This document shows, one piece after another, positions 5,065-55,350 of a stretch of 64,000 bases of DNA. A program made the position numbers and the translations under genes. Origin of the DNA: a virus. Lineage: Duplodnaviria > Caudoviricetes. The stretch is from the IMG/VR virus record IMGVR_UViG_3300021431_000094, positions 35,915 through 99,914 of that record, one strand, 5' to 3'. Positions within the stretch are counted from its first letter, which is position 1; each line of letters opens with the position of its first letter. Below the pieces are notes generated by a model. The model saw only the letters and a list, made by a program, of their open reading frames with translations. It did not search any database and was not told where the DNA came from.

Positions 5065-5073
5065 TCAAAAAGA

Positions 5074-5114: not shown

Positions 5115-5115
5115 C

Positions 5116-5149
5116 AAAAAAAGGGTAGTCAAAAATGGCTACCCTTTTT
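5116..5149. terminator. Bidirectional intrinsic terminator between convergent giant genes
   Basis: aaaaagggtagtca-aaaa-tggctacccttttt, with A and T tracts on both sides. Confidence 0.9.
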
Positions 5150-5165
5150 AATTTGGTGATATTGA

Positions 5166-31672: not shown

Positions 31673-31745
31673 GACTGTGTAGCTCAGATATGTAGAGCGG
31701 CGGTGATTAAACCACAGGTCAATGGTGCAAATCCATTCGCAGTCG
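31673..31745 (+). tRNA. Degenerate tRNA-like gene (Asn-like body, 6-nt anticodon loop GATTAA)
   Basis: Acceptor gactgtg/cgcagtc, D stem gctc/gagc, anticodon stem gcggt/accac with one mismatch, variable loop aggtc, T arm aatgg-tgcaaat-ccatt. Confidence 0.7.
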
Positions 31746-31842
31746 CAAAGCCAAAAGAAAGGCAAACACTATGGAGGTTTTCTGGGGAGTTAACTTCAAG
31801 GATGTTAAAGAATAATGGTTAGGCTACCATAAAAGGCCAAGC

Positions 31843-38006: not shown

Positions 38007-40306
38007 TGGACCTTACAGCATTACAATTAAACAAGTATCAGACAAAATACACTAACGAACTACTACAAAAACTACCCGAAATTGTAGTTCAATGGCTCGA
38101 TGATGCCATAACGAACCATGTCTTTATCCAGCGGCTCATTTCAAAAGACAGACCATTGGCTAAAGACTGTGAGAAAGACGAAAAAGGAAGAGCAATATTA
38201 GATCTTACCAATCCGTATATCCTCACCGATGTAAGTTATTTCACGCAGACAGCGGACTTTTTTCGTAACAACAAATGCTATACCTTCATTAAAAGGAACC
38301 CAAATCCCAATTCAGAATATAGACGATTCTGGCGGCAAGAGATAAGGCGGTGTTGGGACGGAATGGTAAGACCTGAAGATGGTGCCTATGTGACAGGTCT
38401 TGAATACTTCTACCTGAACTTTTACCGGATGCTAGTCTCAAAGACAACAGAAGGTTCAAAGAGGGCAAGACGTATATATGACTTTCCAAGTTTTTTTGAA
38501 CTGGCACATTACCGCTACCGGTATTTGGAATATGCATTGGAAGCAGGTCTTAATGCGATAGAACTATCAAAACGTGGTAGCGGAAAAAGTTACTCTATAG
38601 CATCTATTCTGGCTCACAATCTTATATTAGGCATAGATGCCGAACAGAGAAAGGGGACGGTGGGAGGATTCATTGCTTCTGATAAGACCTATCTTGACAC
38701 AAAGAAAGATGGAACGTTGAAGAAATTCGTGGATGAACTGGCGTTCCTGCGTAAGAATACTGAGTTTCCCCGACTGATGACCAGCCAGAGCGGTAATGAA
38801 ATGGCTTGGAAGAAAGGTTACAAGGATACTGGTGGTGGTGAAGACGGAGAGAGCAATATTGTATTCGGGACAAGTGTGGCCAACGAATCAGACAAGCTTC
38901 GAGGCAAGCGAGGCTGGTTCATGTATGAGGAAATGGGTAACTTCCCGAATCTTTATGAGACCTACAATGCCAATCTACGTGGTGCTTCGGAAGGTGACTA
39001 CAGTATCGGATTAATCTATCTTATCGGTACTGCCAACAATAAGGAGAGCAACTTTGAAAGTGCCAAGACCTTACTTTATAAACCCAAAGAACATTCCATA
39101 TATAGTCTTCCCAATGTCTATGATGAGCAGAACAAAGGTCGTGATGAATTTGGCTTATTCACACCAGCTTTTTTGAATCGTCTGGGCTGTTATAATAAAG
39201 ACGGTATCAGTGATGTCACAAAGGCATTGCTTCAAATTATGCTGGCCCGTTACAAGGCTTATGAATCTGGAGAAGCATTCGCCCTGTTGCATGCAATCGC
39301 AGAAGACCCTATAGACCCTGCAGAAGCCATGATTCAAAGCCGTAAGGCATACTTCCCCACGACGGCTTTGAACGAACGACTGACGTGGCTTAACACCCAC
39401 CCTGAGGAACTGAACCGTCATTTGGTAGGAGAACTTGTTATGAAAGATGATGGAGAAGTGGTTTTTAAGCCAACCCATGATATACCACTACGCCATTGGA
39501 ATAGGAGCAAGGAGAATAAGAGTGATGAAAATATCGAGGGAGCATTAGAGATATTTGAAATGCCACAGAAATCACCACGTACTGGTAAGATAATTGAAGA
39601 TAGGTATATAATTGGCGTGGATCCTGTGGACCAGGAAGAGGGAGTAAGTGCATCATTGTTTAGTGTGTTGGTATTCGACCGCATGACAAACACTATTGTA
39701 GCAGAATATACTGGACGTAAGGAATTTTCTGATCAGAACTATGAAATTGTTAGACTGCTTTGCTATTACTATAATGCCAGATGTCTCTATGAGAACAATA
39801 TCCACGGAATGTATAACTATTTCAAACAATATAACTGTACCTATTTGCTGTATGACTGTCCGGAATGGTTGAAACAACAGGACAAAGTACATTATAATGG
39901 TGTCGGTGTCACCGTTAAGGGAGTACGAAGGACCAAACCCATCATCGATGTGCAGATAAAGCTGATTCATGACTGGCTTCTCACACCCCAAGACATATCT
40001 GTCGTAGATGATAATGGCAATATTCAGGTTGTAAATAAACCATTGTTATATACTATAGACAGTCCTGCATTGCTGGAAGAGTTAATAGGCTATTATGACA
40101 AGGCAAATGTAGATAGAATAAGTGCGTTAGGCATGGTGATGATAGCTCGGGAACAATATATGGAAATGGGTGAAGACAAGATAAATGACGGGCAAGACCT
40201 TATGGCAGATAAAAACTATCTTGGAAACAGTAAGTTTTTCACGAACCTGTATGACAAACGTAGGTCTGTAACCTATGGAGGTGTTTTTCCCAGAGATACC
40301 AATTAA
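38006..40306 (+). CDS. terL: Terminase large subunit
   Basis: Walker A KRGSGKS, Walker B MYEEMG, nuclease IGVDPVD, YENN, NVDRISALG. Confidence 0.95.
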   Translation: MDLTALQLNKYQTKYTNELLQKLPEIVVQWLDDAITNHVFIQRLISKDRPLAKDCEKDEKGRAILDLTNPYILTDVSYFTQTADFFRNNKCYTFIKRNPNPNSEYRRFWRQEIRRCWDGMVRPEDGAYVTGLEYFYLNFYRMLVSKTTEGSKRARRIYDFPSFFELAHYRYRYLEYALEAGLNAIELSKRGSGKSYSIASILAHNLILGIDAEQRKGTVGGFIASDKTYLDTKKDGTLKKFVDELAFLRKNTEFPRLMTSQSGNEMAWKKGYKDTGGGEDGESNIVFGTSVANESDKLRGKRGWFMYEEMGNFPNLYETYNANLRGASEGDYSIGLIYLIGTANNKESNFESAKTLLYKPKEHSIYSLPNVYDEQNKGRDEFGLFTPAFLNRLGCYNKDGISDVTKALLQIMLARYKAYESGEAFALLHAIAEDPIDPAEAMIQSRKAYFPTTALNERLTWLNTHPEELNRHLVGELVMKDDGEVVFKPTHDIPLRHWNRSKENKSDENIEGALEIFEMPQKSPRTGKIIEDRYIIGVDPVDQEEGVSASLFSVLVFDRMTNTIVAEYTGRKEFSDQNYEIVRLLCYYYNARCLYENNIHGMYNYFKQYNCTYLLYDCPEWLKQQDKVHYNGVGVTVKGVRRTKPIIDVQIKLIHDWLLTPQDISVVDDNGNIQVVNKPLLYTIDSPALLEELIGYYDKANVDRISALGMVMIAREQYMEMGEDKINDGQDLMADKNYLGNSKFFTNLYDKRRSVTYGGVFPRDTN

Positions 40307-40376: not shown

Positions 40377-42779
40377 ATGTCAGAAGATAATAAAATAAAG
40401 GAATTCCCACCACAGCGCATACCTAATTCGAAGAAAACAAAGAAATGGCGTGAAGACTGCATCCGGTATGCAGAGAACGTTAGTGTTTTGTCGAATTCAT
40501 CAGTCAGGATGAATAAGATCAATATCCGACGTAACTACCGACTTTTTGGCGGTAAGCTAGATATGCGTGATGTGGAACAAATCCTAAACCCCGAAGGAAT
40601 AGACTACGGTGTTGAGACGAAAAAGATACAACATTATCCTATTCTTAATTCCAAGATTGACATATTACTTGGAGAAGAGCGCAATAGTATAATTGAGGAC
40701 AGGGTTGTCATAAGTAATCCATCTGCCATATCCGAGATAGAGGAAGCAAAGATACAAGAAATCAAGAACAGACTGCAGGCAGATATTGTCGATGAAACTA
40801 TGAGCGAAGAGGAACGCCAAATGCGGTTGCAGGAGTTTGATTTAACATTCAATTATGACTATCAAGACCTTAAGGAAAAGAATCTCAACGAATTGTTGAA
40901 CCATTATAAGACAGAATATAATTTTCCTGCCATGTTTAACGAGGGATACATGGATGCCCTTGTAGCCAAGACAGAATGCTATTATTGCTATATAGAATGT
41001 GGTGAACCAAAAGTAGAAAGAGTCAATCTACAAGAACTATCTTTTTGGGGGAGTAAGAGTAATCGAATCGAAGATTATCCTTATGTTGTTCGCGAAAGAT
41101 ATATGTCGGCTAATAACATTTTAGATATATGGGGAGACCAAATGAGCGATGCCGATTACAGAAAATTCGATAGACTTATTCGAGGAGAGTTTGAAGGGAA
41201 TAATCTTTATGTCAGTGAAGACTATTATCATTTCCGTTATGGAGATAATCCGACCTTTGTGGACTCCCAGGGTTATTTTAAATTTGATGATGATACAGAC
41301 ATAAGCGAGCTACCTTATGATATAGGGAGCGGCATCAGGGTTTTGGAAGTCTTTTGGAAATCGATGTCTCAAGTATTAGCGGTACATTACTTTGATGAAG
41401 ACGGAAATAAGCAGGTGAAGTTTAGAACTCCTGGTTATATACCGGATGAAGACGCGGGAGAGACAGTAAAAAAGTATTGGAAAAACGAAGCATGGCATGG
41501 TGTGATGATTGGAGCCGGCAAGGATGCCATCTTTGTTGACGTAGGGCCTTGCCAGGTTCAATATAACAGATTGGGAAATCCTTCAAAGTGTCACTTTGGT
41601 TTTGTCGGCACTATCTATAACAATAACGACTACGAAGGAATGAGTGCAGTAGACAAGCTAAAGCCATTGTCATATCAATATGATGTAGTGATGGCAAAGC
41701 TAAATGAGCTTATTGCACGCAACTACGGCAAATTGACAGTGATGGATTTCGCCAGAGTACCGGCAGGATGGGAGCCTGAAAAATGGGCTTACTTCTTAAA
41801 GCTCGGTATATTCGCCATAGATTCTATGAAAGAAGGAGCCATAGGTGCTGCTAAAGGTAAACTGGCAGGCGGTGTTGCCAACACACCTTTGACTGCAGAT
41901 GGAGAGTTAGGTTCGAGCATCCTCAATTATGTTCAACTTTTAATGAACATAGACGCGAGTATGGAAAAGATGTTGGGCCTAACGCCTCAGCGAATGGGTT
42001 CTGTAAAAAATAGAGAGACTGTAGGAGGTGTCGAAAGAGCCGTGGCTCAGAGTAGTAATGTTACTTATTCCATGAGTTCAAAACATGATGATTTAAAGAT
42101 TCGTGTTGAATGGGTGTTTCTAGAAACGGCGAAGATTGCGATGAGAGGAAAAACGAAAAAATTCCCCTATATTCTTTCTGATGGTTCAATCAGACATGTC
42201 ATGTTGGATGGAAACGAAGTATCTGAACTTGATTTTGGCATGGTGCTGATGAATGGTTATGACGTTCAATCGATGCAACAGAGCATTGACCTTTTGGCAC
42301 AAGCAAAGATGCAGAACAACCTACTATCTGCTAGTGCTTATATGGAACTAAAGCGTATGACATCCATTTCCGAAAAGATAAAATTGTTGAAACGAGAAGA
42401 GGCTAGAATGCGTCAGGAAGCCCAACAGGCCCAGCAGCAGCAATTGCAGACACAGCAGATGGAAATTCAGATGAAGATGCAGCTTGAACAGCTAAAGTTG
42501 AGATTAGAAGAGCAAAACAATATCAGAGACAACGAGACAAAGATATTGGTTGCTCAGATTACTGCACAAAATTCAATCGAATTGCAGTCATCGCAAACGC
42601 AGGCAAATGGAGACAACTCTATAGAGAACGAGAAGTTAAGGAATGAAATGGAGAAATTCAATCAGGAAATGGAGTTAGAGAAAGAAAAGTTAGCATCACA
42701 AGAGAGGATGAATAGAGACAATAACGAGGTAAAAAAACAAATTGCACGAATGAAACCACATAAAACAAGCCAAAAGTAA
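40377..42779 (+). CDS. Portal protein (crAss-like)
   Basis: FPPQR..KK..KW, IQHYPI..KI..LLGEE, G.TPQR.G..RETVGGVERAV.QSS, Q-rich coiled-coil barrel. Confidence 0.9.
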   Translation: MSEDNKIKEFPPQRIPNSKKTKKWREDCIRYAENVSVLSNSSVRMNKINIRRNYRLFGGKLDMRDVEQILNPEGIDYGVETKKIQHYPILNSKIDILLGEERNSIIEDRVVISNPSAISEIEEAKIQEIKNRLQADIVDETMSEEERQMRLQEFDLTFNYDYQDLKEKNLNELLNHYKTEYNFPAMFNEGYMDALVAKTECYYCYIECGEPKVERVNLQELSFWGSKSNRIEDYPYVVRERYMSANNILDIWGDQMSDADYRKFDRLIRGEFEGNNLYVSEDYYHFRYGDNPTFVDSQGYFKFDDDTDISELPYDIGSGIRVLEVFWKSMSQVLAVHYFDEDGNKQVKFRTPGYIPDEDAGETVKKYWKNEAWHGVMIGAGKDAIFVDVGPCQVQYNRLGNPSKCHFGFVGTIYNNNDYEGMSAVDKLKPLSYQYDVVMAKLNELIARNYGKLTVMDFARVPAGWEPEKWAYFLKLGIFAIDSMKEGAIGAAKGKLAGGVANTPLTADGELGSSILNYVQLLMNIDASMEKMLGLTPQRMGSVKNRETVGGVERAVAQSSNVTYSMSSKHDDLKIRVEWVFLETAKIAMRGKTKKFPYILSDGSIRHVMLDGNEVSELDFGMVLMNGYDVQSMQQSIDLLAQAKMQNNLLSASAYMELKRMTSISEKIKLLKREEARMRQEAQQAQQQQLQTQQMEIQMKMQLEQLKLRLEEQNNIRDNETKILVAQITAQNSIELQSSQTQANGDNSIENEKLRNEMEKFNQEMELEKEKLASQERMNRDNNEVKKQIARMKPHKTSQK

Positions 42780-42785: not shown

Positions 42786-43628
42786 ATGGATAAGAATTTC
42801 ATATCATTGAAGAGTGTAGCAGCAGACGTTTATAGTAAAGAGAAGATGCGCGACATGCCATTTGAAATGTTGATAAGCCTTACACTAGAACTTATGCAGA
42901 TAACTGGTTGTCCGCTTCTATTTCTTGACAAGGAAGAAGTGTTGGAAGTACATGAACACCGAGTAGAGTTGCCATGTAATTTTTATGAACTTCGACAAAT
43001 CAAGCTTGAAAGGTTATGCCATGGTGATAGAATGGCTAGTCCAATGAGGGTAATAGAGCAAACCCATACAACAGAATATGAAAAAGGAAATAATAAGGAA
43101 GCCGTTACTGTCACACGAAGGATAGGTTTCCAGGAAGTCGCTATCGTACCTCAGCATCGCCGTCCTGATAGTCCTATGTTCAAAGAGTCCACATCTACAT
43201 TTGTTGATGCCAACTTTCATCCTGGTGCCGACTTGACATATAAAGTACAAGGTAATATCATCATAACCTCCATACCGGAAGGTTTTATTCGTATTGCCTT
43301 TCGTGAAATAGCATCTGACGAAGATGGTTTTCCCATGATAGTGAATGATGCTTCTTTTCTGAGGGCGTTGAAGTCTTATATCAAATACAAATGGTATACA
43401 GATCTGTTAGACGAAGGCAAGCTCGGACAAGATGCCCATTACATATATGAAAAGGCAGAACAAGATTATTATGCCAACATATCCCAGGCAGAAAAATCAT
43501 TGCTTAACATTACGCCGGAGAAGATGCGGAATATTGCAAATATTTTGACAGACATGATGCCACGCAAGTATGAACATGCCTCCGGGTATAATGATCTGAA
43601 CAAGGAACATTCGCTCCGGGTACATTAG
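42786..43628 (+). CDS. Tail tubular/ring protein (P22 gp4-like)
   Basis: LPCNFY, YKVQGNIIITS..G.I.IA..D.DGFP.I..F.RAL..YI. Confidence 0.75.
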   Translation: MDKNFISLKSVAADVYSKEKMRDMPFEMLISLTLELMQITGCPLLFLDKEEVLEVHEHRVELPCNFYELRQIKLERLCHGDRMASPMRVIEQTHTTEYEKGNNKEAVTVTRRIGFQEVAIVPQHRRPDSPMFKESTSTFVDANFHPGADLTYKVQGNIIITSIPEGFIRIAFREIASDEDGFPMIVNDASFLRALKSYIKYKWYTDLLDEGKLGQDAHYIYEKAEQDYYANISQAEKSLLNITPEKMRNIANILTDMMPRKYEHASGYNDLNKEHSLRVH

Positions 43629-43642
43629 AAGTTTTTCATTTC

Positions 43643-43835
43643 TGTTTATATTCTGTTTACAAAGTAAGGCAACTGATTGAAATTCAGTTGCCTTTGTACC
43701 CTACGGCAGAGTCTATGTTATTTTGGATTTTTGGTATCTAATTGTATATTATGTACCTTTCTATGAGGTGATTTTAGAAAACATGGATATTTCTGGAGAT
43801 TATAGATGGTAAAAGTGTTTACATTTTTGTTTACA
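43643..43835. mobile_element. Putative attP region
   Basis: Immediately downstream of int; paired direct TGTTTAYA repeats at 43643/43654 and 43816/43828; inverted repeat 43666-43694 adjacent to a tRNA-3'-end-like CCGTAGGGTACA on the minus strand. Confidence 0.6.
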
Positions 43836-43857
43836 CAAAAGCACTCCTTTACTTAAT

Positions 43858-45072
43858 CTACAAAGAATTGAATTTTTTCATACTTTCTTCTTTCATTTTG
43901 TCGACAATCCCTAAGTAGCGTTTTAGCGTGTTGAATGATTTGTGGCCAGTCCACTTCATGAAGACCGCCGGCTGTATGTCTAAATAAAGAGCCATAGTGA
44001 TGAATGTCTTTCGGGCTACATGAAAGGTCAATGCTTCTGCTAATGTCATTTCCTTAATAATCCTTTCATTTCCTAAGAATATAGTCTTGTGTATCATTCG
44101 GTTAAGACCTGCCATCTCACCTATTGCTTTAAGGTATAAATTGGTTGATTGGTTGCTTAAAACAGGTAAAGCAAAATCACCTTTGATGTTCTTATATTTT
44201 TCCAAAATACCTTTGCTATAGTCATTTAGTTCAATTTTAAGGGAGTCATTTGTTTTTTCAGTGATGATTTCAAAATAATCCTCATGAATATTAGTTTTGC
44301 GTAATTGTTTGACATCGGAATACCTTAGTCCAGAAAAGCAGCAGAAGATAAAGACATCTCTTGTGGCTCTGTATTGAACTGGCAAATTACAGTTAGCTAC
44401 TTTTTTTATTTCGTCGGGATTTAGATAGATAGGTTCATCAAAGGCATAATGGAGTTTTGGTTGTAAAGTGAATCCTATATCAGTAGGAGTATATTTGTTT
44501 TCGAAGGCCCATTTCATAAAGCGTCTGAATTTGCGTAATATAGAATCGACCGATAAATTAGTCAATCCTTTATTTTGTAGGAAAGAAAGAAAACCAAGTA
44601 TAATGTTTTCGTCTATTTGAGCTATTGGTGTTCCTGGTCTATATTCGTGAAAATCCGTTTTGACGGTTAGAAGGTTTTTTTTAGTGTTGGGGCTCCATTG
44701 CTGCATGAGTTGTTCCTTTTGGATAAAGATGTTGAAGACCTCTTCAAAGGTTTGGCCATCATTATTCTTTTCATCCTGGTTTAGACCTAGAATTTTTCTT
44801 ATATCATCTTTAGTAGGAACTTCAAATTTCTCACCCTTCTCGTAGAAGAAATCCTGTAAGTTTTTTTTCATTTGAGTGAGCTGCCTATTGATAAATGCAG
44901 CGTCCCTCCAGTTTGGCTTGCATTGCTGTCTATTCTTATCCCACATCTTTTGTTCCACATGCCAAGGCAGATAAATCTGGAGTCTTTGATTGGCCCAGGT
45001 GAGACTAAGTGATATGCTATAACCGTCTTTCCTTTTTACAGGGTGAAGATAGTAACGTATGTTGTATTTCAT
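43858..45072 (-). CDS. int: Tyrosine integrase (Bacteroidota type)
   Basis: N-terminal arm-binding domain; SGLRYSD, KT, FHVARKTF, TGHK, KRY catalytic residues all present. Confidence 0.95.
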   Translation of the reverse strand: MKYNIRYYLHPVKRKDGYSISLSLTWANQRLQIYLPWHVEQKMWDKNRQQCKPNWRDAAFINRQLTQMKKNLQDFFYEKGEKFEVPTKDDIRKILGLNQDEKNNDGQTFEEVFNIFIQKEQLMQQWSPNTKKNLLTVKTDFHEYRPGTPIAQIDENIILGFLSFLQNKGLTNLSVDSILRKFRRFMKWAFENKYTPTDIGFTLQPKLHYAFDEPIYLNPDEIKKVANCNLPVQYRATRDVFIFCCFSGLRYSDVKQLRKTNIHEDYFEIITEKTNDSLKIELNDYSKGILEKYKNIKGDFALPVLSNQSTNLYLKAIGEMAGLNRMIHKTIFLGNERIIKEMTLAEALTFHVARKTFITMALYLDIQPAVFMKWTGHKSFNTLKRYLGIVDKMKEESMKKFNSL

Positions 45073-45079
45073 AGTTCAA

Positions 45080-45571
45080 TTATGTACCAAAAGGTTCTTC
45101 GTTCAAATTTAACAGGGAAGATTGTTCTAAGTCTTTTTTATTATATGGTTCTACATGCTGTGGGTTCATTTCTTTATAAAGAGATAGCTGTTCTTTGAGA
45201 GAGTTTATAAGTTCGTTTTTTAGCTCAGCATTCTTTTTTATAGCATCAATTAGTTCATCCTTTTGTTCAATCAATCGAATGAGTTGGGAGGAAGTCCATC
45301 CATAGTATTTATCTTTTTCGTCCTTTGGTTCAAGACCGTCGACATACATATTGCCATTACCGGTGAGCAACCATTCGATGTTGAATTCTTGGAAATGGTC
45401 ACAAACTTTATTGCACATCTTTCTCGACAGGTCCAATCTGCCGCTGCTTATCTGCCGTAAGGTAGATTCCTTGACACCGATCTCATCAGCCATTTGCTGC
45501 CAAGTCATCTTTTTGATTTCCTTTATTCTGACTAACCTTTTGCAGGCATTAATATCAATAGCTTTATTCAT
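45080..45571 (-). CDS. CI-like XRE helix-turn-helix repressor
   Basis: TWQQMADEIGVKESTL..G, NIEWLLTGNGNM; upstream of int and divergent from the lytic operon. Confidence 0.85.
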   Translation of the reverse strand: MNKAIDINACKRLVRIKEIKKMTWQQMADEIGVKESTLRQISSGRLDLSRKMCNKVCDHFQEFNIEWLLTGNGNMYVDGLEPKDEKDKYYGWTSSQLIRLIEQKDELIDAIKKNAELKNELINSLKEQLSLYKEMNPQHVEPYNKKDLEQSSLLNLNEEPFGT

Positions 45572-45741
45572 TTTTTTAAGGATTAAATTGGTTAAACATG
45601 AGTTTTAAGTCTAGCTATATTTTGTCTTTGACATTTCCTTTGTATTTTTTAACACATCAATAATACATTTTATTACAATGATTTAGGTAATTGCATAGAT
45701 TATTTAATAAACATTTTACTCCACATATCAATATTTATTTG

Positions 45742-45749
45742 TACCTTTG
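45742..45749 (+). promoter_or_regulatory. Early rightward promoter -7 box in the immunity region
   Basis: TACCTTTG(CA) in the AT-rich divergent intergenic region. Confidence 0.65.
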
Positions 45750-45853
45750 CAATATGATATAATAAATACATTTATCTATAATTTATGTATTCGAAGAGGT
45801 AAAATTATTTTATGAATATAGTATATTAAAGTATGTTTTAACTTTATTTAGAT

Positions 45854-46108
45854 ATGTTAGTAATAGAAAGTGAAGAAAAGTTTTCGGAAATCCTGAAAAA
45901 GGCAATGAAAGAAGTAGGGAGAGAAAGTAAAAACGTGAATCCGATAATAGGAGGATGGGACAATGTAATAGATTTCCTAGGCATCGATAAGCATCAGATA
46001 AAGCAGAACTACAAATCAGGCTTTTATGGTGATGCTTTACAAATACTGGGCCATTCTGTGGTACTGAATACACAAAGGCTTTGGGAAATATTAAAATCAC
46101 GTAAGTAG
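45854..46108 (+). CDS. Excisionase/Cro-like small DNA-binding protein
   Basis: First gene divergent from the repressor; I.G...V.DFLG..G.Y.DA..Q/I.G pattern. Confidence 0.6.
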   Translation: MLVIESEEKFSEILKKAMKEVGRESKNVNPIIGGWDNVIDFLGIDKHQIKQNYKSGFYGDALQILGHSVVLNTQRLWEILKSRK

Positions 46109-46111
46109 GGA

Positions 46112-46537
46112 ATGGAACCTATCATCATAGAAAAAAAGAAAGGCAGACTACTAGGTCGAAGCATTATGAAAACGTTGCTCAATGGATTGGGCGATGGTTT
46201 TTATAAGGTTACGATAAAGAAGATGCACCACAGCCGTAGTAATCAACAGAACAGATGGCTGTGGGGGCAGATATATCCGAGGATACTGCATGGCCTGATT
46301 GATGCTGGATGGGAGAACGTAACGACAGAAGAGCAGGTACATGAAATGTGTAAGGTGATGTTTGCCGGAACCGATATAGTAAATCCTAATACAGGTGAGA
46401 TTACAACAATACCTAATAGGACGAGTGAAATGGATACAGTTACTTTCAGCCTATATTGTATGCAACTAAGGATGTTTGCGAGTGATATGTTAGGGATTAC
46501 GATTCCGGAACCTAATGAAAGGCTATTGCAAGAATGA
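46112..46537 (+). CDS. NinB-like recombination protein
   Basis: RSNQQNRWLW..HE..K..TSEMD..F..Y..LGI.IP. Confidence 0.7.
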   Translation: MEPIIIEKKKGRLLGRSIMKTLLNGLGDGFYKVTIKKMHHSRSNQQNRWLWGQIYPRILHGLIDAGWENVTTEEQVHEMCKVMFAGTDIVNPNTGEITTIPNRTSEMDTVTFSLYCMQLRMFASDMLGITIPEPNERLLQE

Positions 46538-46733
46538 AAAGGTATCAGAAAGAAAGGCCAAACTAGGAACATGTTCTGATTGTGAGTATAGTACTCCCAA
46601 AGGAACAAAGAGTCTTAAAGGAGAGTTTTTCATGGGCGGTTGTGACTTTTGGACACCAGATGTTAAACACCCTAATTTTTACTTTCTAGATAAAGAATGT
46701 GAGAATGGGCATTATAAGAAGCGAAAGGATTAA
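46515..46733 (+). CDS. Small Cys-rich protein
   Basis: CSDC..GC..C. Confidence 0.55.
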   Translation: MKGYCKNEKVSERKAKLGTCSDCEYSTPKGTKSLKGEFFMGGCDFWTPDVKHPNFYFLDKECENGHYKKRKD

Positions 46734-46751
46734 TTATTAGTTTATAGTTAT

Positions 46752-46817
46752 AGGGGCTAGATCGGAAGTCATGAGCCGGTGACAAGGGTTTTTTGTCAAG
46801 TTGTTTTACCCGCCCCT
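46752..46817 (+). ncRNA. C4/CI-antisense-like three-way-junction RNA
   Basis: aggggc/gcccct, atcgg/ccggt, gacaag/tttgtc; segments complementary to downstream 46827-46835 and 46857-46863. Confidence 0.6.
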
Positions 46818-46866
46818 TTATTTAAAAACTTGACATTCGATTAATGAATAATAAAAATGACTTGAT

Positions 46867-47607
46867 ATGGAAAAAGAGTATGTAAGACTTTACAGAGAAT
46901 ACGACTGCCACAAATGGATAACTGATCCAAATACCATGGCTGTGCTTGTAAGATGTTTGTTTAACGCAAATACTAATGACACTTTTTTTGAGGGTCATCT
47001 TATATCGAAAGGAAGTTTTGCGACAAGTGTATCATTACTTTCAAAACAAACAGGTGTTAAACAAAATGCAATCAGGACAGCATTGAAACGACTAACAACT
47101 GACAAAATAATTAACATTCAACCCACAAACAGATTTACAATAATAACAGTCTGTGAATATGGATATTACAATGATTTTCCACAAACCAAATTAGAAACAA
47201 CTAACAAACAACTAACAAACAACCCCCTATTCAACTCACAAACAACTGACGAACAACCCACTCTTCAACTCATAACAGAAGAAGATAAAGAACAAGGTAT
47301 TCTAAAGAAAAAAGAAGATGCTAAAGTATTTTCTAATAAAAAAGAAAAAGGTTTTGTCAAACCAACTATTGATGAAATCCGAGATTATTGTCATCAAAGA
47401 GGGAATCACGTCGATGCAGAAAAGTTTTGGAACTATTACGAGAGCATAGGTTGGAAAGTCGGTAAAAATCCAATGAAAGATTGGAAGGCTGCAGTGAGAA
47501 CTTGGGAAAGAAAAGAAACCGATGTGAATAGAGAATCTACCCAGCTATCGTCACGCTGGGGCGAAAAAATTAATGTTGAACGCAAAGATAATTATTGGCA
47601 AGAATGA
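46867..47607 (+). CDS. Phage replication initiator (lambda O/DnaD-like)
   Basis: N-terminal winged helix (GSFATS..L..TIIT.C.Y..Y); C-terminal F.KPT.DEI..Y..FW.YY...GW..MKDWKAAVRTWE. Confidence 0.85.
   Translation: MEKEYVRLYREYDCHKWITDPNTMAVLVRCLFNANTNDTFFEGHLISKGSFATSVSLLSKQTGVKQNAIRTALKRLTTDKIINIQPTNRFTIITVCEYGYYNDFPQTKLETTNKQLTNNPLFNSQTTDEQPTLQLITEEDKEQGILKKKEDAKVFSNKKEKGFVKPTIDEIRDYCHQRGNHVDAEKFWNYYESIGWKVGKNPMKDWKAAVRTWERKETDVNRESTQLSSRWGEKINVERKDNYWQE
47195..47275 (+). repeat. Iteron array (putative origin) inside the initiator gene
   Basis: CAACnnAC-type units at 47198, 47209, 47220, 47232, 47243, 47254, 47266, followed by an A-rich tract. Confidence 0.7.
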
Positions 47608-49667
47608 TAGACAGGGAACAGATATACACTTGGTGGAAGATATTCCAGGACAATGGTGCCAAGCTTTGCGAAATACGCTGTCTTGATGGCAAAAGGTCCT
47701 ACAGTGGCTATTTTCGTTCATTAGATAACATCATCCGCGAAATAGAGCCTTTGTCGGAGCGTGACAATATGCAGATCTATTTTGTGATGAACAGCATCAA
47801 AGAAGAATGTTACGACAGACAACAGAAAGAACGGCTGATTGAGAATGCTAAAAATCAAACTTCGGACAACGATATTAATGGCCGTTCCTTCATACTGCTT
47901 GATTTTGACCCCGAACGTCCTGCCGGTATAGGTAGTACAGAAGCACAATTAGAAGCTGCTCACAAAGTAGCAAGGACAGTGTACAACTATCTTTTGGAAC
48001 AAGGACTAGGAAGTCTTATCGTATGCAAATCAGGCAATGGAATACATATATTGATACCTGTTCGAATGGCTAATACGGAAGAGAACAAAAACGTTGTGGA
48101 GCGTTTTTTAAAGACCATTGCAATGATGTTTGACACGGAAGAGGTACATTGCGATACGAAAGTGGCCAATGCAAGCCGGATTACAAAACTCTATGGTACA
48201 TATGCGAAAAAAGGAACAAACACTAAAGCGCATCCTTGGCGTTTGTCTAAGTTTTGGAAAATACCAGATGCGATAGAACCAAATTCGATAGAGTATGTAA
48301 AGAAGATAGCTGACCTTTTTCCTAACGAAAAGCCAACACCATCTAAAGAGAATAATTTCGGTAGGAGTCAATTTGACATTGTAGAATTTTTAAATAGACA
48401 CAATATAGAATACAGAACCGTTCGTATATCCGGTGGTACACGATACATACTCAAAGAATGCCCATTTGACTCGAACCATAAGGATCCAGATAGCATGGTA
48501 TTCCAACATGACAATGGCGCATTGGCATTTTTCTGCTATCACAGCTCATGTTCGTCCTATACCTGGCGAGATTTTAGGCTGCATTTTGAGCCTGATGCCT
48601 ATGACCAGAATGCTTATCGTGACTATCAGTATAAGCGACAGCATGTGATGATGAAGAGTGAAGTTAAGCCAATAGCTGAACCGATAGTAGAAGACAATGA
48701 GAAAGGCCCTATATGGTTACGAATGTCAGAAATCAAACGACCGAAGTTTGACATATCCAACTATATCCCATCTGGTGTAGAACAGATAGACAGGCTCACT
48801 GTTGGATTCCGTCGTAAGCATGTCACCGTGTGGTCAGGCTATAGGGGTTCCGCAAAGACAACCGTACTGAACATGCTCATTCTGAATGCTGCACAGAGAG
48901 GATATAAAACAGCACTTTGGACTGGCGAACTTGATGGAGAAGAAGAAAAGAACTGGCTGTACCTACAAGCAGCAGGAAAGATGTTCAACGTTCCAACAAA
49001 CGTATCAGGTTTCTACGAAACACCAGATTGGGTATGTGATAAGATAGACCCATGGATTGACAAACACATGAGAATATTCAACAACAAATATGGTAATGAC
49101 TTTAACCAAATAGTAGATAGAATACGGTTGTTGAAGAAAGAAATAGACCTCGATGTTGTGATGTTTGACAACCTAATGACATTGGATATAGACAGCCTAG
49201 ACGGAGATAAGAACGAAAGGCAGAAACGGACAATGCTCATCTTGACAGACCTAGCCAAGGAACTAGACATACACATTCATGTAGTAGCTCATCCGAACAA
49301 GTCCGGGAACTTTCTACGTATGAATAACATTTCGGGCACAGGCAATATACCAGACCTAGCGCAAAATGTTTTGATACTACATAGAGTAAATCAGGACTTC
49401 ATGATTAACTCCAAAGAATTTCTACCTAATCTGACTATACAGGAAATACTAGAATCGAAATGTACAAACTGCATAGAGATATGCAAGTGGCGTGACAAAG
49501 GATCTGCCGTAGACAACTTTATCAAACTCTATTTTGAGAAAGAGAGTAACCGGCTTAAGAATTCACTAGCTGAAAACATCCACTATAATTGGGAGGAAAG
49601 TTTGAACAAAGCAGTCCGAACAGAACCATACACAGATTTTTTTAAAGAAACTAATTGCCCGTATTAA
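47595..49667 (+). CDS. Primase-helicase fusion (AEP-like primase, Zn finger, SF4 helicase)
   Basis: LLDFD..SGNGIH; CPF..H..C.H..C; GYRGSAKTT, FDNLM, VAHPNK. Confidence 0.85.
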   Translation: MARMIDREQIYTWWKIFQDNGAKLCEIRCLDGKRSYSGYFRSLDNIIREIEPLSERDNMQIYFVMNSIKEECYDRQQKERLIENAKNQTSDNDINGRSFILLDFDPERPAGIGSTEAQLEAAHKVARTVYNYLLEQGLGSLIVCKSGNGIHILIPVRMANTEENKNVVERFLKTIAMMFDTEEVHCDTKVANASRITKLYGTYAKKGTNTKAHPWRLSKFWKIPDAIEPNSIEYVKKIADLFPNEKPTPSKENNFGRSQFDIVEFLNRHNIEYRTVRISGGTRYILKECPFDSNHKDPDSMVFQHDNGALAFFCYHSSCSSYTWRDFRLHFEPDAYDQNAYRDYQYKRQHVMMKSEVKPIAEPIVEDNEKGPIWLRMSEIKRPKFDISNYIPSGVEQIDRLTVGFRRKHVTVWSGYRGSAKTTVLNMLILNAAQRGYKTALWTGELDGEEEKNWLYLQAAGKMFNVPTNVSGFYETPDWVCDKIDPWIDKHMRIFNNKYGNDFNQIVDRIRLLKKEIDLDVVMFDNLMTLDIDSLDGDKNERQKRTMLILTDLAKELDIHIHVVAHPNKSGNFLRMNNISGTGNIPDLAQNVLILHRVNQDFMINSKEFLPNLTIQEILESKCTNCIEICKWRDKGSAVDNFIKLYFEKESNRLKNSLAENIHYNWEESLNKAVRTEPYTDFFKETNCPY

Positions 49668-49685
49668 CATTTAAAATATACAGAT

Positions 49686-49889
49686 ATGAATCACGACATA
49701 AAACATTGCAATGGAGAAAACTGTCCTGTAAGAGAGACCTGCCATAGATATGTGGCACACGTTGATCTAATCGAACCAGCCAAAGTAAACGAACCAATCA
49801 GTGGTTTTCAGTCCTATTTAAATGCATCAACATGCATCAGTGAAGATCTTAAGATGTACTGGGGAGAGAATTATCAAATTAAGTGCTAG
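49686..49889 (+). CDS. Small Cys-rich protein
   Basis: DI.HC.G..CP.RETC.RY. Confidence 0.65.
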   Translation: MNHDIKHCNGENCPVRETCHRYVAHVDLIEPAKVNEPISGFQSYLNASTCISEDLKMYWGENYQIKC

Positions 49890-49895
49890 GGTGTC

Positions 49896-50093
49896 ATGGG
49901 TAAGCAATACACACTTTTTGATATAGCCGAAATAGAAATAAGGCCTTGTTGTGGAAATTGTGAAAATTACTCCTGGGTTAAATATTTTGGTGGTAGACAC
50001 CAAGAGTGCAGCCGAGTGCTGAACAGAGCCCACCGGCCATACAGACCCAAAGCCAGTGGAGTAATATGCCCCTATTATAAACGAAAGGAATAA
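49896..50093 (+). CDS. Small Cys-rich protein
   Basis: CCGNC..C..CPYY. Confidence 0.6.
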   Translation: MGKQYTLFDIAEIEIRPCCGNCENYSWVKYFGGRHQECSRVLNRAHRPYRPKASGVICPYYKRKE

Positions 50094-50095
50094 AG

Positions 50096-50314
50096 ATGGA
50101 AATAGAGACTAAATTTGGCCTAGGTGAATCAATATTTTATATTGACAAAGGATTGGTTAGAGAAGCGAAAATCATTGAAATCAATATAAGAATGATACAA
50201 TGTAGCATACTAACGGTCATTTATGGACTAGAGGATGGTAATTGTATCTTAGAGGGTGGGGCCTTTAGTTCAAAAAAAGCCCTTCATGATTATATAGATG
50301 CGCAATGTCGCTAA
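50096..50314 (+). CDS. Hypothetical protein
   Basis: IETKFGLGE..F.SK..L pattern common in Bacteroidota phages. Confidence 0.6.
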   Translation: MEIETKFGLGESIFYIDKGLVREAKIIEINIRMIQCSILTVIYGLEDGNCILEGGAFSSKKALHDYIDAQCR

Positions 50315-50329
50315 TTAAAAGTAAGTATT

Positions 50330-50381
50330 AAAGTTTCATCCTTTACGGATTGTGACAAAAAAAAATACCTTGCTATTTTTG
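50330..50381 (+). promoter_or_regulatory. Tail hub/fibre/lysis operon promoter: palindrome plus -7 box TATTTTTG
   Basis: aaagtttcatccttt at 50330-50344; TATTTTTG at 50374-50381; 29-nt spacer. Confidence 0.8.
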
Positions 50382-50402
50382 CAATATAAAATAGCAAGGT
50401 AA

Positions 50403-50933
50403 ATGACTGTATCTCGGTTTGACATAGATTATAATAACAGGAAGCTGCATATCACCGCTGATGCAGGTGAAGGACATACTATTGCAGCCATCAAGATAGA
50501 TAGCTGTAGAACGTTCAATTGTGGAGAGGAAGCCAGCATACGGTCAATAACCGTGTATGAAGGCCAGACCCAAACCCTAGACAATTATGAAATTGATTTA
50601 GATCTGATTGAGATAAATGGATTAACATTATCCCAATCATTATTTTTTGCGTATATCTATACAGATGACGGCCAGGCAGGAGAGACGGAATTAATACCGT
50701 TCTATGATTTAATGGCATTAAAGCGTTATGTTTATAATGCAATCAAAGACGAACTTTTGCCATGTAACAAGTGTGAGTCTGTCAGCGATATGGTTGTTGA
50801 CAAGGTAATGCTTTACTTTGGATTTACACATGCGGTAGAGTTGGGGCAATACCGTGATGCTTGTGAATTCATCAATAGTATATATAGAAACCAAGTAAAC
50901 GGTAGTAGGAGGTGTGGGTGCCATGGACGTTAA
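50403..50933 (+). CDS. crAss-like tail ring/hub protein
   Basis: L.I..I.ID..TF N-terminus; C-terminal CGCHG. Confidence 0.55.
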   Translation: MTVSRFDIDYNNRKLHITADAGEGHTIAAIKIDSCRTFNCGEEASIRSITVYEGQTQTLDNYEIDLDLIEINGLTLSQSLFFAYIYTDDGQAGETELIPFYDLMALKRYVYNAIKDELLPCNKCESVSDMVVDKVMLYFGFTHAVELGQYRDACEFINSIYRNQVNGSRRCGCHGR

Positions 50934-51228
50934 CCCCATAATGAAATATCTGAAGACGCTGAAAAGTGTTGGAACCATAAGCGGGGTAGAGATAAGATAC
51001 CTTGCGCTTTATGCCTTTTTGGCAGAAATGTTTGAGCAGAGTAGCCTTACAAAAGAAGAAACGTGTGAAATTAATACAATACTAGATTGCCTAAGACGAA
51101 AGTCTTGTCTTATTGCTAATATAGAAGATTTTGAAGAAGCAGTAGAACAATCATTAGGATTATTGATGACCGCAGGAAGAACTAATATCAAAACTGCCAA
51201 TGGCACTTATATTCGTTTGATGAGTTAA
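50914..51228 (+). CDS. crAss-like tail hub protein
   Basis: Y.K.L..G..L..F..E..I..L.CL...SCLI. Confidence 0.55.
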   Translation: MGAMDVNPIMKYLKTLKSVGTISGVEIRYLALYAFLAEMFEQSSLTKEETCEINTILDCLRRKSCLIANIEDFEEAVEQSLGLLMTAGRTNIKTANGTYIRLMS

Positions 51229-52638: not shown

Positions 52639-52683
52639 TTACATTTAATCAACCTAATGTTTAATAATTAAAAAAGTAAAGAC

Positions 52684-53154
52684 ATGGCAGAAGAGAACAT
52701 GCACAACGGATTAAGCCCTTACGAGGCACTCAAAGTGAGTAAATTGACTAGCAGACCCAGCGGTGTGGGCATTGGCGGCTTGGTAGTCGGCGTTGGAGCC
52801 GCAGTGGTTGGTGTTGGCGGATGGATATACGCCCACGGACAGGCAAAGCGAGCCCAGGAAGTAGCAGCCGCCAATAACAATGCAACTCAGAAGCAACTTG
52901 ACTTGCTCACTCAGCTGTTGAGTTCTGAGCGCAACGAGCGAATTGCCGGCGACCGTAACCTTACCATCAGTATCAACGACTCAGTCAGCGGCCAGCAGCA
53001 GGCCACCCAGTCGCAGAGTACCGTGCAGAGTGTTGAACAGAGTCTGTTCAAGGATGCCGTTATGGGCAATCTGCGCCAAGCCCCTGTTGAAGTTGTCCGT
53101 GTAAGTGGTCAGCGTCAGTGTGGTTGTGACGACGGTTGCGGCTGTAACGGCTAA
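52684..53154 (+). CDS. Membrane-anchored protein with coiled coil and Cys-rich tail
   Basis: GVGIGGLVVGVGAAVVGVGG; C-terminal CGCDDGCGCNG. Confidence 0.7.
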   Translation: MAEENMHNGLSPYEALKVSKLTSRPSGVGIGGLVVGVGAAVVGVGGWIYAHGQAKRAQEVAAANNNATQKQLDLLTQLLSSERNERIAGDRNLTISINDSVSGQQQATQSQSTVQSVEQSLFKDAVMGNLRQAPVEVVRVSGQRQCGCDDGCGCNG

Positions 53155-53164
53155 ATTCAATCAT

Positions 53165-53216
53165 TAAGGTGGGTAGGGAGAGTGTTCTGTGTACTTTAGC
53201 TTTCCCACCCACCTTA
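53165..53216 (+). promoter_or_regulatory. Intergenic hairpin (stabiliser or weak terminator)
   Basis: taaggtgggt/acccacctta with inner ggga/tccc. Confidence 0.55.
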
Positions 53217-53233
53217 TTTAAAGTACACACACA

Positions 53234-53605
53234 ATGTTATTCGATAAAAAAAAGAAGATGGCCAATTACGCGAATGCGATGCAGAATTTCCGACCGACGA
53301 GCAAGTATGCCTTAAAGCATTTTTGCCTGATAGCCACAGGTCTGGACCTGGAAGAGGCACAAAAACTCTATGCTTTCTTGTCAGAAGGATTGGAGACATT
53401 GCCAGACTTTGACCCGCTGCCGCCCACGTTTATGGATAAAACTAAGGCAACGATCGCCGAAGTGTTTGGACTTATAAAAGAGCATGAGGACGAGTTAGGT
53501 AAAGGATATGGGATACTGCAAGCATTGTTGGCTAAAAAGGGGACGGTGCTGCCTGATATAGATAGTGCTGCATTAGCAGAACCGCTGCCACCGATTAACG
53601 GATAG
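53234..53605 (+). CDS. Hypothetical protein
   Basis: ORF in the small-gene cluster. Confidence 0.65.
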   Translation: MLFDKKKKMANYANAMQNFRPTSKYALKHFCLIATGLDLEEAQKLYAFLSEGLETLPDFDPLPPTFMDKTKATIAEVFGLIKEHEDELGKGYGILQALLAKKGTVLPDIDSAALAEPLPPING

Positions 53606-53642
53606 AAGAGATAGATATAATAGAAAGGATAGATATGATAGG
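53602..53642 (+). repeat. 9-bp-period ATAGA array
   Basis: ATAGA at 53602, 53611, 53620, 53629 (ATAGG at 53638). Confidence 0.8.
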
Positions 53643-53823
53643 TGCTAAGGTGGCATTTAACGTATATGCCAAAAGTCAAGAAGAAGCCGAAGTGGCAAGT
53701 AAAGCAATAGCCGACTTCGTTGACAAGATGGCAAAACAGGGAGTGGCAGTAACGGCAGAGAAACTGACACAAGCTGTGAGAAATTGGGGGAACAATCCAT
53801 TGGTAAGAAACTATTTTAAATGA
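53635..53823 (+). CDS. Hypothetical protein
   Basis: ORF in cluster. Confidence 0.65.
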   Translation: MIGAKVAFNVYAKSQEEAEVASKAIADFVDKMAKQGVAVTAEKLTQAVRNWGNNPLVRNYFK

Positions 53824-53832
53824 CGATATAAT

Positions 53833-54057
53833 ATGGTTGAAAATACCGTGAAAAAATGTCCGCACGATTGTCTGAAATGTAGTATGGCGCAACAGATATA
53901 CTGCACATCGCAGAACACGCACGACATTGCGATGATGCTGTCTGAATGGCGTGGAATGATGTTTGGCGGAGTTGGCAAAGTAACTAATAGCACAGAAGAG
54001 GACGGTGCAGAGAATAGACCCTCAAATGAACAACCTCAAAACTATAATGAACAATGA
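53833..54057 (+). CDS. Cys-rich hypothetical protein
   Basis: CPHDCLKC...QQIYC. Confidence 0.6.
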   Translation: MVENTVKKCPHDCLKCSMAQQIYCTSQNTHDIAMMLSEWRGMMFGGVGKVTNSTEEDGAENRPSNEQPQNYNEQ

Positions 54058-54545
54058 GTTGTAACTGCAAAAAGAACGGTACCACGGAAATTGACTTTCT
54101 AACCTTGGTACCTGGTGGGACCACCACCGATGCCAACTATCAATTGGCAGTGACACATTACCTATGTGGCAACCGCAAGGTATGTGCTAACGGTAATTTT
54201 CCTGTGATGGGAGAATTGAAATACCAAGTCATGGGTACGCCGGAATCTCTAGGTAACGGTACCTATTGTTGTCAGGTGCTCTGTACTGGCACCGTGACGT
54301 ATATGCCTTACAAATCGGGCCAGAACTGTGGCTGTAATGGTTGCAATTGCCCCAAGACCGACAATGTGTATTTTATGCTGTGTGTGCCATGTGAGAGTAT
54401 GGCAGTGCCTACAATCACTGGCGGTGTTGTCGTGGCCGCGCCCACCAATCTGAGCGATTGCTGCAATGTGACCAACGCCGTTGAGCTGACTACCAGCATC
54501 AATGTGGCCACAGCCCAGACTGCAACGACAAGCAAAAAGGCATAA
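54054..54545 (+). CDS. Cys-rich beta protein
   Basis: Many Cys including SCNC, CC, CGCNGCNC. Confidence 0.7.
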   Translation: MSCNCKKNGTTEIDFLTLVPGGTTTDANYQLAVTHYLCGNRKVCANGNFPVMGELKYQVMGTPESLGNGTYCCQVLCTGTVTYMPYKSGQNCGCNGCNCPKTDNVYFMLCVPCESMAVPTITGGVVVAAPTNLSDCCNVTNAVELTTSINVATAQTATTSKKA

Positions 54546-54550
54546 AGAAG

Positions 54551-54898
54551 ATGGTGGACGTTGCGATGATAGTGTTGTCGGCAGTATTGGCCAACCACCT
54601 CGAACTGATAGAGGCGGTAGAAAAAGTTATACGCCATGAGATACCAATTGTGAACTGCAGCAAGTGCCTTACATTCTGGTCGGTTTTGGCGTATATGCTT
54701 CTAACGGGCCACGCTGTGATAGCCTGCATTGCAACGTCTTTTTTATGTGCTTGGGTAGCGACTTGGATAGAGTTGCTGCTTGGTATCATAGACCACTTTT
54801 ATTTACGAATCTATGAAAATTTTTATTCCGAAACAACCAATGCCGAAGATACCGAAGAAACGGTGTCCGAAGTGCAACAAATAGAGAAAGAACTATGA
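54551..54898 (+). CDS. Membrane protein with CxxCxxxW (DUF1360-like)
   Basis: NCSKCLTFWS flanked by hydrophobic helices. Confidence 0.6.
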   Translation: MVDVAMIVLSAVLANHLELIEAVEKVIRHEIPIVNCSKCLTFWSVLAYMLLTGHAVIACIATSFLCAWVATWIELLLGIIDHFYLRIYENFYSETTNAEDTEETVSEVQQIEKEL

Positions 54899-55350
54899 AG
54901 TATTGTGACATAATAAAGTCGTCGCCCAATAATGGCGAAAAAGGAATGTGGGCAAGTGTGGATAGAATGTCTAACTTCCTTGAAAAAGTGAAGGAGAATC
55001 ATCCCCATGAAGTGAAAAGATTTTTGAGAGAAGAGTATATAGCCATGAACGGCAAACACTTGAATGAGGGTGTGGCCCGTAAGTTGGTATCGGACATGCA
55101 CCACAGCAAGGGCAACAAGGTCTATCGTGGCGAAATGATAAGCCCAGAAGAAGCTGCATCAAAGTTTGGCAAAAAAGAAGAATGGTATTGGGATGCATAC
55201 GTTGCTGCTAATGCCATGATGCACGATTTGGCTAACACTGAATTAAGTAATAGTCAGATTCTTGATGTAGCCAATAAGTTTTTCTTCGAGGATGAAGATT
55301 TCTCGGACGAAAACAAACTATTTTGGTATTTTGAATGGTTATTGTTTTAA
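54895..55350 (+). CDS. Hypothetical helical protein
   Basis: G.HLNE..A..V..M, WDAYVA.N...HD, FF.DED..K..WYF. Confidence 0.65.
   Translation: MKYCDIIKSSPNNGEKGMWASVDRMSNFLEKVKENHPHEVKRFLREEYIAMNGKHLNEGVARKLVSDMHHSKGNKVYRGEMISPEEAASKFGKKEEWYWDAYVAANAMMHDLANTELSNSQILDVANKFFFEDEDFSDENKLFWYFEWLLF

Follow-up and report, generated by a model that had tools for sequence, protein, structure and literature searches.

The DNA analysed here is a 64,000-nt stretch (the window; coordinates refer to it unless given as genome positions) that makes up bases 35,915–99,914 of the 99,914-bp IMG/VR phage record IMGVR_UViG_3300021431_000094, which comes from cattle gut. Within it, a module at 43.6–50.3 kb containing an attachment site, a tyrosine integrase, a repressor and a set of replication genes is placed between the portal and ring protein 1 genes (ending at 43628) and the probable tail hub A gene (starting at 50403) of a crAss-like phage. 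We consider it likely that the record captures, in its free (attP) form, a temperate crAss-like phage that integrates at a tRNA-Glu gene and replicates by way of a PrimPol–helicase and the DNA polymerase of its host. The evidence that carries this reading is a 35-nt core, flanked by pairs of arm-type repeats, that is identical to the flank of a bacterial tRNA gene, together with an integrase that is conserved across the clade and a sister lineage in which the integrase end of the module has been lost. A preliminary description of this part of the window, made by a model that saw only the letters and their open reading frames (ORFs), had proposed an apparently temperate crAss-like phage of this kind, and we indicate below how its individual claims fared.

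The probable attachment site and the integration genes

The gap between the genes for ring protein 1 and the integrase is 229 nt long. On the ring protein side, two TGTTTAYA repeats start 11 nt apart at 43643 and 43654 (the P arm, 43643–43661, plus strand). They are followed by a 35-nt common core (43666–43700), composed of a hairpin with an 11-bp stem and the sequence TTGTACC, and then by a segment (43701–43720, minus strand) that resembles the 3′-terminal 19 nt of a tRNA, from the end of the T-loop through the T-stem to the acceptor strand. Read on the minus strand, this remnant precedes the hairpin and TTGTACC. Two TGTTTACA repeats that start 12 nt apart at 43816 and 43828 (the P′ arm, 43816–43835, plus strand) adjoin the integrase gene. 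Four of the eight copies of the TGTTTAYA octamer in the window fall inside 193 nt, arranged as two tandem pairs about 155 nt apart and in the same orientation; by our arithmetic about 0.02 copies would be expected in the gap, versus 4 observed. Octamer pairs flanking a core have the layout of arm-type integrase sites, and we regard both arms as candidate sites of this type. The P arm is conserved in a sister genome (L003, discussed below), whose contig is the only one in IMG/VR to carry the P-arm pattern, and the P′-arm pattern has no match in that database.

A single copy of the 35-nt core is present in the JGI metagenome collection. It is on L012, a 7.5-kb contig that has just 48 nt in common with the phage. 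There the core lies directly 3′ of a tRNA-Glu(CTC) gene identified by ARAGORN, with the orientation as predicted and a T-tract after it, and so is the terminator of the tRNA-Glu gene itself. Homologues of a kinase gene with leucine-rich repeats (LRRs) on the same contig are found on bacterial contigs of up to 885 kb. Given exact identity over 35 nt at the flank of a tRNA-Glu gene, we take this locus to be an attB-like site. When the two sequences are aligned on the minus strand, they are identical from the outer end of the hairpin through GGTAC, then diverge at six positions of the T-stem and acceptor strand before matching again at GACTCTG. Either the crossover would fall within the 35-nt block, leaving the tRNA-like remnant as a relic, or the tRNA of the true host would differ from the one on this contig. 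The preliminary description had read the gap as an att-like site in its excised form, a reading that is strengthened by the arm-repeat pairs and by the exact match to a bacterial tRNA flank.

Several further observations concern this site and its bacterial partner. In 401 Bacteroidota genomes, the tRNA-like 17-mer of the phage is no commoner than chance would give (2 one-mismatch hits versus 1 control hit), and its exact form is in neither these genomes nor IMG/VR. A CTnDOT-like GTANNTTTGC site was inspected by eye as the identity of the core and dropped. The genes beside tRNA-Glu on the bacterial contig (L012 positions 1045–6817) encode a DUF6939 protein (no match in 121 genomes), a 941-aa Ser/Thr kinase with LRR_5 repeats, a 304-aa protein and an AAA_15/SMC_N ATPase, and look like a variable, possibly defence-related island. 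The 9-mer TACGGCAGA has three copies, all within the module: at 43702 in the attP remnant, at 45451 in the repressor gene and at 49503 at the end of the helicase gene. By chance 0.37 copies are expected, and three were reached in 0 of 100 shuffles; two of the copies extend to 13/14 and 15/18 matching positions.

The integrase (43858–45072, minus strand) is a tyrosine recombinase of the heterobivalent type. Its Arm-DNA-bind_5 (25.3 bits versus a cut-off of 22.6), SAM_5 and Phage_integrase domains all score above their Pfam cut-offs, and phrog_1 matches at E = 2e-30. The catalytic residues R250, K273, H351, R354, H377 and Y386 are the same in all eight homologues aligned, which bears out the earlier claim of a complete catalytic set. 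Identity to any annotated integrase is only about 30–34%, the nearest annotated phage integrases being those of Porphyromonas gingivalis temperate phages and prophages (34%, among GenBank phages), and no sequence-related solved structure was found. The protein scores far under the XerC/XerD cut-offs and is not a Xer equivalog.

Adjoining the integrase gene is the repressor that had been proposed there, an XRE-family helix-turn-helix (HTH) protein (45080–45571, minus strand) that matches phrog_8/2328 and, in Pfam, only HTH_19/HTH_3 over residues 11–73. Its C-terminal half is coiled-coil-like, and the Pfam search gave no match to an S24 peptidase self-cleavage domain of the LexA/CI type. An AT-rich divergent region of 282 nt (45572–45853), a putative control region, separates it from a rightward operon, the first gene of which encodes an 84-aa HTH_17/DUF3853-like protein (45854–46108, plus strand). 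This ORF has no Pfam or PHROG match; a language-model atlas groups it with DUF3853/HTH_17/MerR-type HTH proteins (score 0.93, structure TM 0.61). The divergent gene that had been called xis/cro-like is thus present as an ORF, but a Cro- or Xis-like identity is a lead only. Next comes a NinB/Orf-like recombination mediator (46112–46537, plus strand; phrog_72, E = 2e-14). The coupling of a crAss virion to an integration module stands as first described, but 'lambdoid' is a loose label for integration in a phage whose repressor has no S24 domain.

The module in related genomes

The source is a metagenome assembly without terminal repeats, which speaks for a chimera of a crAss phage with a temperate phage or a bacterial fragment. 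We give this explanation practically no weight. One Logan contig of 73 kb, from the likely source run, spans 38–54 kb with zero differences and an even depth of ~101, and both borders of the module are present in L003 (IMG/VR, from another metagenome; 69.5 kb, collinear and ~94% identical to the phage) and in a 21-kb contig (X3) from the bovine gut metagenome of a third study. Identity to L003 is 93.5% for the module and 94.7% for its flanks. In a search for direct repeats, no shared word of at least 10 nt was found between 43560–43900 and 49500–50500. Coverage in the likely source run, borders common to the two relatives and the lack of a bracketing repeat therefore lead us to reject a chimeric origin as well as an independent element that would have its own attL and attR, the two origins that the preliminary description had named as reasons to doubt the block. 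Judged from these comparisons, the module is native to the phage.

More distant relatives extend this picture, although the integrase has few relatives in the databases. The closest relatives of the integrase are 61–66% identical and form eight clusters, found in Logan and ENA assemblies only, and portal relatives were found at 63–68% identity. In nine cases, integrase and portal variants are on contigs of equal size (83130, 24410, 76212, 19471, 12790, 97079, 97733, 97403 and 21399 bp). The integrase would then have travelled with the virion over ~35% protein divergence, which argues that the module is old in the clade. A single portal query gave no match in GTDB genomes and only L003 in IMG/VR, and the integrase alignment had no match in IMG/VR or the JGI metagenomes.

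The two close relatives carry a decayed form of the module. L003 and the X3 contig have the same structure, and both are without exactly 43701–45296. The missing stretch runs from the tRNA-like remnant through the P′ arm and the integrase gene into the repressor gene, of which it takes the last 72 codons. The repressor stub that remains has a 1-bp deletion in both assemblies and shifts frame after ~27 codons. At the junction, the order is (i) P arm, (ii) hairpin, (iii) TTGTACC, (iv) a G, (v) CAT and (vi) repressor sequence. The left breakpoint is the exact end of the block of identity between phage and bacterium. The junction G is the base found in the bacterial tRNA, whereas C is present at this position in the intact phage and before CAT in the repressor gene; the CAT itself is present in both the tRNA and the repressor gene. 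This structure is suggestive of a microhomology-mediated illegitimate excision from a tRNA-Glu prophage, in which the integrase-proximal end was lost and one to four bacterial bases were kept, much as in the formation of lambda gal and bio phages. The scar would in that case be fossil evidence, likewise suggestive, of a past integrated state.

L003 has two further deletions. It is without 164 nt inside a Cys-rich 72-aa ORF (46550–46713; L003 14577) and without 2.7 kb downstream of the tail hub genes (52674–55339; L003 20522–20540). The longer of the two stretches contains several small ORFs, including one for a DUF7841 protein, lies near the tail fibre genes and may be a variable cassette.

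Replication genes and the crAss-type genome

The rightward operon includes a DnaD/lambda-O-like replication initiator (46867–47607, plus strand; phrog_2514 at E = 1e-16, with phrog_186 and phrog_678). Inside the initiator gene is an iteron array (47195–47272, plus strand) with an 11-nt period and 5.6 copies, followed by an A-rich tract, which we regard as a candidate origin. The next gene encodes a fusion of a PrimPol domain of the AEP family to a DnaB-like helicase (47595–49667, plus strand; LigD_Prim-Pol 5e-7, DnaB_C 2e-7, phrog_19 5e-40) and is nearest to a protein of Bacteroides uniformis phage C3_41T2LP (40% identity). The ninB-like gene, initiator and primase–helicase of the preliminary description are therefore all recovered by family matches.

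The earlier observation that the window has no DNA polymerase gene extends to the whole 99,914-bp genome. Searched in six frames, it has no PolA, PolB, protein-primed PolB or PolIII-alpha (PF00476, PF00136, PF03175 and PF07733). No DnaG-type primase is present among the Pfam and PHROG matches of the scanned ORFs, a result obtained without a dedicated six-frame DnaG search. The only primase found is the AEP/PrimPol domain, and the only initiator is also inside the 46.9–49.7 kb block. In the left 27 kb of the genome are small minus-strand genes of kinds that temperate phages and the mobile elements of Bacteroidota typically carry. Their products are a Sak4-like annealase, a second DnaB-like helicase, a PD-(D/E)XK nuclease, VRR-NUC, RadC, PcfJ/PcfK, DUF3873 and YopX proteins and a C5 methylase. 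No canonical crAss replication or nucleotide-metabolism genes are found in this region, and the 46.9–49.7 kb block is therefore taken to hold the only initiator and primase of the genome. From the absence of a polymerase gene we infer dependence on the host DNA polymerase.

This gene inventory also bears on whether the 43.6–50.3 kb block could be an independent integrative element, such as a satellite or an island akin to phage-inducible chromosomal islands, that is a mere passenger in a crAss phage. Such islands are generally known to have a similar order of integrase, repressor, divergent small HTH protein, initiator and primase–helicase, the integrase is located at one end of the block, and the GC content of the window is lowest here (33.5% at 44–46 kb). 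A passenger is nevertheless very improbable, because the block carries the only initiator and primase of a phage in which neither a DNA polymerase nor DnaG was found, and because no direct repeat of at least 10 nt joins the attP gap to the right border. The sister genome, moreover, keeps the block with the same borders and a common divergence, and the integrase co-occurs with the portal across a clade that is ~35% diverged in protein. The att site is at the block border beside phage genes, and its partner is in a bacterial tRNA rather than in the phage.

We also note, within the 3′ portion of the initiator gene, a segment of ~60 nt (47448–47513) that is common to many unrelated contigs in all four runs examined, with 5–8 mismatches. 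Summed depth at this segment is 172 versus 101 (X1), with many loose ends on both sides, and it may be a conserved motif or a recombination hotspot of the initiator family.

The virion genes that surround the module are clearly of crAss type by homology. The window opens with the C-terminal 264 aa of a giant virion RNA polymerase (2–796, plus strand), the whole ORF of which (2994 aa; genome 27726–36710) matches phi14:2 gp66 (PDB 6VR4) in a phmmer search at E = 1.3e-28; the preliminary description had proposed looking for RNA polymerases in the rest of the genome, and this one is present. The crAss-type major capsid protein (15416–16954, plus strand) matches Pfam Crass_capsid with 272.9 bits (E = 5e-81), and an anti-repressor with KilA-N and ANT domains lies within the structural operon (18043–18855, plus strand; KilA-N 2e-22, ANT 6e-23, phrog_63 1e-38). 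The terminase large subunit TerL (38006–40306; phrog_6681, E = 1e-86), the portal protein (40377–42779; phrog_6547, E = 5e-104) and tail ring protein 1 (42786–43628; Pfam CrAss_Ring_1, E = 4e-47) follow on the same plus strand. To the right of the module, the structural operon resumes with probable tail hub proteins A and B (50403–51228, plus strand), whose matches to crAss_THA (26.4 bits, 6.6e-6) and crAss_THB (21.6 bits, 2e-4) are just below the 27-bit cut-off. The position between portal/ring and tail hub genes is accordingly as first reported, with the weaker match on the tail hub side. Other crAss virion domains found are Ring_2 (3e-33), Ring_3_4 (5e-31), the muzzle domain crAss_MUZ (3e-231) and crAss_CARG1 of cargo protein 1 (5e-39).

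In a tblastn search of 50,697 GenBank phage records, the portal is most similar to those of Steigviridae (Pamirivirus cr116_1, IAS virus and DAC15; ~41% identity), and 120 of 120 matches are to crAss-like or Flavobacteriia crAss-related phages. By its proteins the phage is a Steigviridae-related crAss-like phage, and 41% portal identity, a value from the best hit alone, suggests a separate subfamily or family. CheckV grades the record as 99% complete and linear. A C5 cytosine methyltransferase and three YopX paralogues on the minus strand straddle the record ends (61556–63915 in the window; genome 124–528), and a minus-strand gene block leaves the record at one end and continues at the other. 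Paralogues at both ends of the record and a gene block that resumes across them fit a circularly permuted, essentially complete genome. Elsewhere in the window, two long ORFs near the RNA polymerase gene (2427 aa, 5166–12449, minus strand; 1418 aa, 808–5064, plus strand) have no Pfam, PHROG or PDB sequence match, and a single tRNA-Leu(TAA) gene is located at 31673–31746, between the cargo genes and the pre-terminase operon.

Probable lysogeny and its place among crAss-like phages

These features can be combined in a model for the phage life cycle. The heterobivalent integrase would bind the two arm-repeat pairs, and the recombination partner of the 35-nt core (terminator hairpin plus TTGTACC) would be its exact copy at the 3′ end of a tRNA-Glu(CTC) gene in Bacteroidales. 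The resulting prophage would have the ring protein 1 and portal genes at one end and the integrase gene at the other. The XRE-type repressor, predicted to be co-transcribed with the integrase, would oppose the rightward operon (small HTH protein, NinB, initiator with iteron origin and PrimPol–DnaB helicase), whose expression would start replication. The host DNA polymerase would carry replication out, because the phage has none. Since the repressor has no self-cleavage domain, induction would more probably proceed through the Ant anti-repressor of the structural operon. Lysogeny is strongly indicated by this combination of sequences, and the branch to which the phage belongs very probably forms prophages.

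An alternative is that the phage does not integrate and instead persists as a phage-plasmid or in a carrier state, with the integrase and its site working in multimer resolution or genome circularisation, in the manner of Cre/lox in P1, and the repressor and iteron replicon maintaining the episome. An iteron initiator and a repressor would suit plasmid-like maintenance, the close relatives are all on phage-sized contigs, and the prototypic crAssphage has been reported to be a phage-plasmid (PMC10983915). We think this unlikely, however, because an arm-binding domain and arm repeats are typical of directional integration and excision and not of Cre- or Xer-type resolvases, and the integrase is far under the XerC/XerD cut-offs. 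The core is, moreover, identical to a bacterial tRNA flank, the deletion junction of the sister lineage has a bacterial-type base, and no partition gene family turned up among the scanned ORFs.

Several observations weigh against integration at tRNA-Glu. Neither an attL or attR junction nor an integrated copy turned up among assembled contigs, which do not show minor forms. Among the matches listed, the attP gap is free of joints and loose ends in Logan contigs of four runs over 38–54 kb, a result that is uninformative on integration because contigs drop minor forms. The closest integrases are all on phage-sized contigs (≤100.4 kb), and their co-occurrence with portals is taken from equal contig sizes, not from contig sequence. 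The preliminary description had suggested a search for Bacteroidota prophages with this capsid and integrase, and such prophages did not emerge: GTDB species genomes have no close integrase homologue (the sole match is a 32% identical Hymenobacter integrase), and the crAss capsid gene was not found in the 401 sampled Bacteroidota genomes; a six-frame positive control on the genome of the phage itself recovered it at E = 1e-82. The tRNA-like part of attP differs from the contig tRNA at six positions, which may mean that the contig comes from a relative of the host rather than from the host, or that crossover takes place only in the 35-nt block. Finally, the excision-scar argument stands on the coincidence of one breakpoint and on one base.

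Among known systems, the phage resembles Steigviridae (the beta group, with Pamirivirus faecium cr116_1, IAS virus, DAC15 and PhiCrAss001 relatives) in its size of ~100 kb, its TerL–portal order, its crAss-type capsid, ring, muzzle, cargo and probable tail hub proteins and its giant virion RNA polymerase. Unlike these phages, it has an integrase, attP, repressor, Ant, NinB, Sak4 and lambdoid-style initiator, no PolA/PolB or DnaG-type primase was found in it, and its structural genes are split into blocks by the lysogeny and replication module. With the epsilon crAss-like phages (crAssE-Sib; PMC11054128, PMC7886860) it shares a repressor, KilA/ANT anti-repressors, a suspected temperate lifestyle and the lack of a DNA polymerase gene. 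Epsilon phages are a different branch, however, in which no integrase has been found (PMC11054128), whereas the integrase and attP are intact here and the closest relatives of the virion genes are in the beta group.

The integration genes have their closest parallels in the tRNA-targeting integrases of Bacteroidota (IntDOT/IntN1-type systems and P. gingivalis prophages), which likewise combine Arm-DNA-bind_5, SAM_5 and catalytic domains and have arm repeats flanking a core whose sequence is that of the 3′ end region of a tRNA gene. In this phage the block of identity differs in being mostly downstream of the tRNA, in the terminator hairpin, rather than inside it. Like lambda, the phage has its repressor and integrase on one strand facing a divergent early operon, a NinB homologue, an iteron origin inside the initiator gene with an A-rich tract after it (as in lambda O/ori) and, by inference, reliance on the host DNA polymerase. 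Unlike lambda, it has a repressor without an S24 self-cleavage domain, Bacteroidota-type promoters, and no P-type helicase loader, the PrimPol–DnaB fusion replacing recruitment of host DnaB and DnaG.

The preliminary description had presented cultured Crassvirales as phages that lack lysogeny modules and encode their own PolA/PolB replisome. The first part agrees with the literature, in which cultured crAss-like phages have no lysogeny genes (PMC8042965), but the background is broader than this. PolA or PolB is encoded by all crAss-like groups except epsilon and a few environmental genomes (PMC7886860). Epsilon phages have a repressor and anti-repressors with no detectable integrase, and Parabacteroides has incomplete related prophages (PMC11054128). 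In a 2026 catalogue from mouse gut, annotations of an integrase, an excisionase and CI are reported to be rare in Steigviridae and enriched in Intestiviridae and in the zeta group (PMC13503771), and a survey of pig-gut prophages lists 12 crAss-like prophages (PMC12454387). Integrases in some Crassvirales, mentioned in catalogues, and the lack of a polymerase in epsilon phages are therefore already on record; the new evidence here is the 35-nt identity between attP and a tRNA-Glu(CTC) flank, the integrase-deleted sister with its scar-like junction, and the co-occurrence of integrase and portal in the clade.

On balance we lean, though not strongly, towards a wider interpretation, in which a clade of ~97–100-kb ruminant-gut phages that is sister to Steigviridae would be truly temperate at tRNA-Glu, having exchanged the crAss replisome for a lambdoid initiator and PrimPol–helicase that use the host polymerase, and in which aberrant excision would repeatedly yield obligately lytic derivatives. 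The long persistence of crAss phages in the gut is usually ascribed to phase variation, to carrier states or to life as a plasmid (PMC8375218, PMC10983915). That a crAss-type virion comes with a complete integration system and an identifiable tRNA target indicates that this type of particle can follow classical lysogeny too. The phage also adds to the crAss-like phages that lack a DNA polymerase of their own, and it provides a testable handle on the host, namely Bacteroidales with a matching tRNA-Glu terminator. For phage therapy and for the use of these phages as markers, membership in the crAss group would be no guarantee of a non-integrating phage. The intact genome and its integrase-deleted, repressor-dead sister form a natural pair in which the origins of a lifestyle switch can be studied and, if the wider interpretation is true, aberrant excision would be a natural route from temperate to 'virulent' crassviruses.

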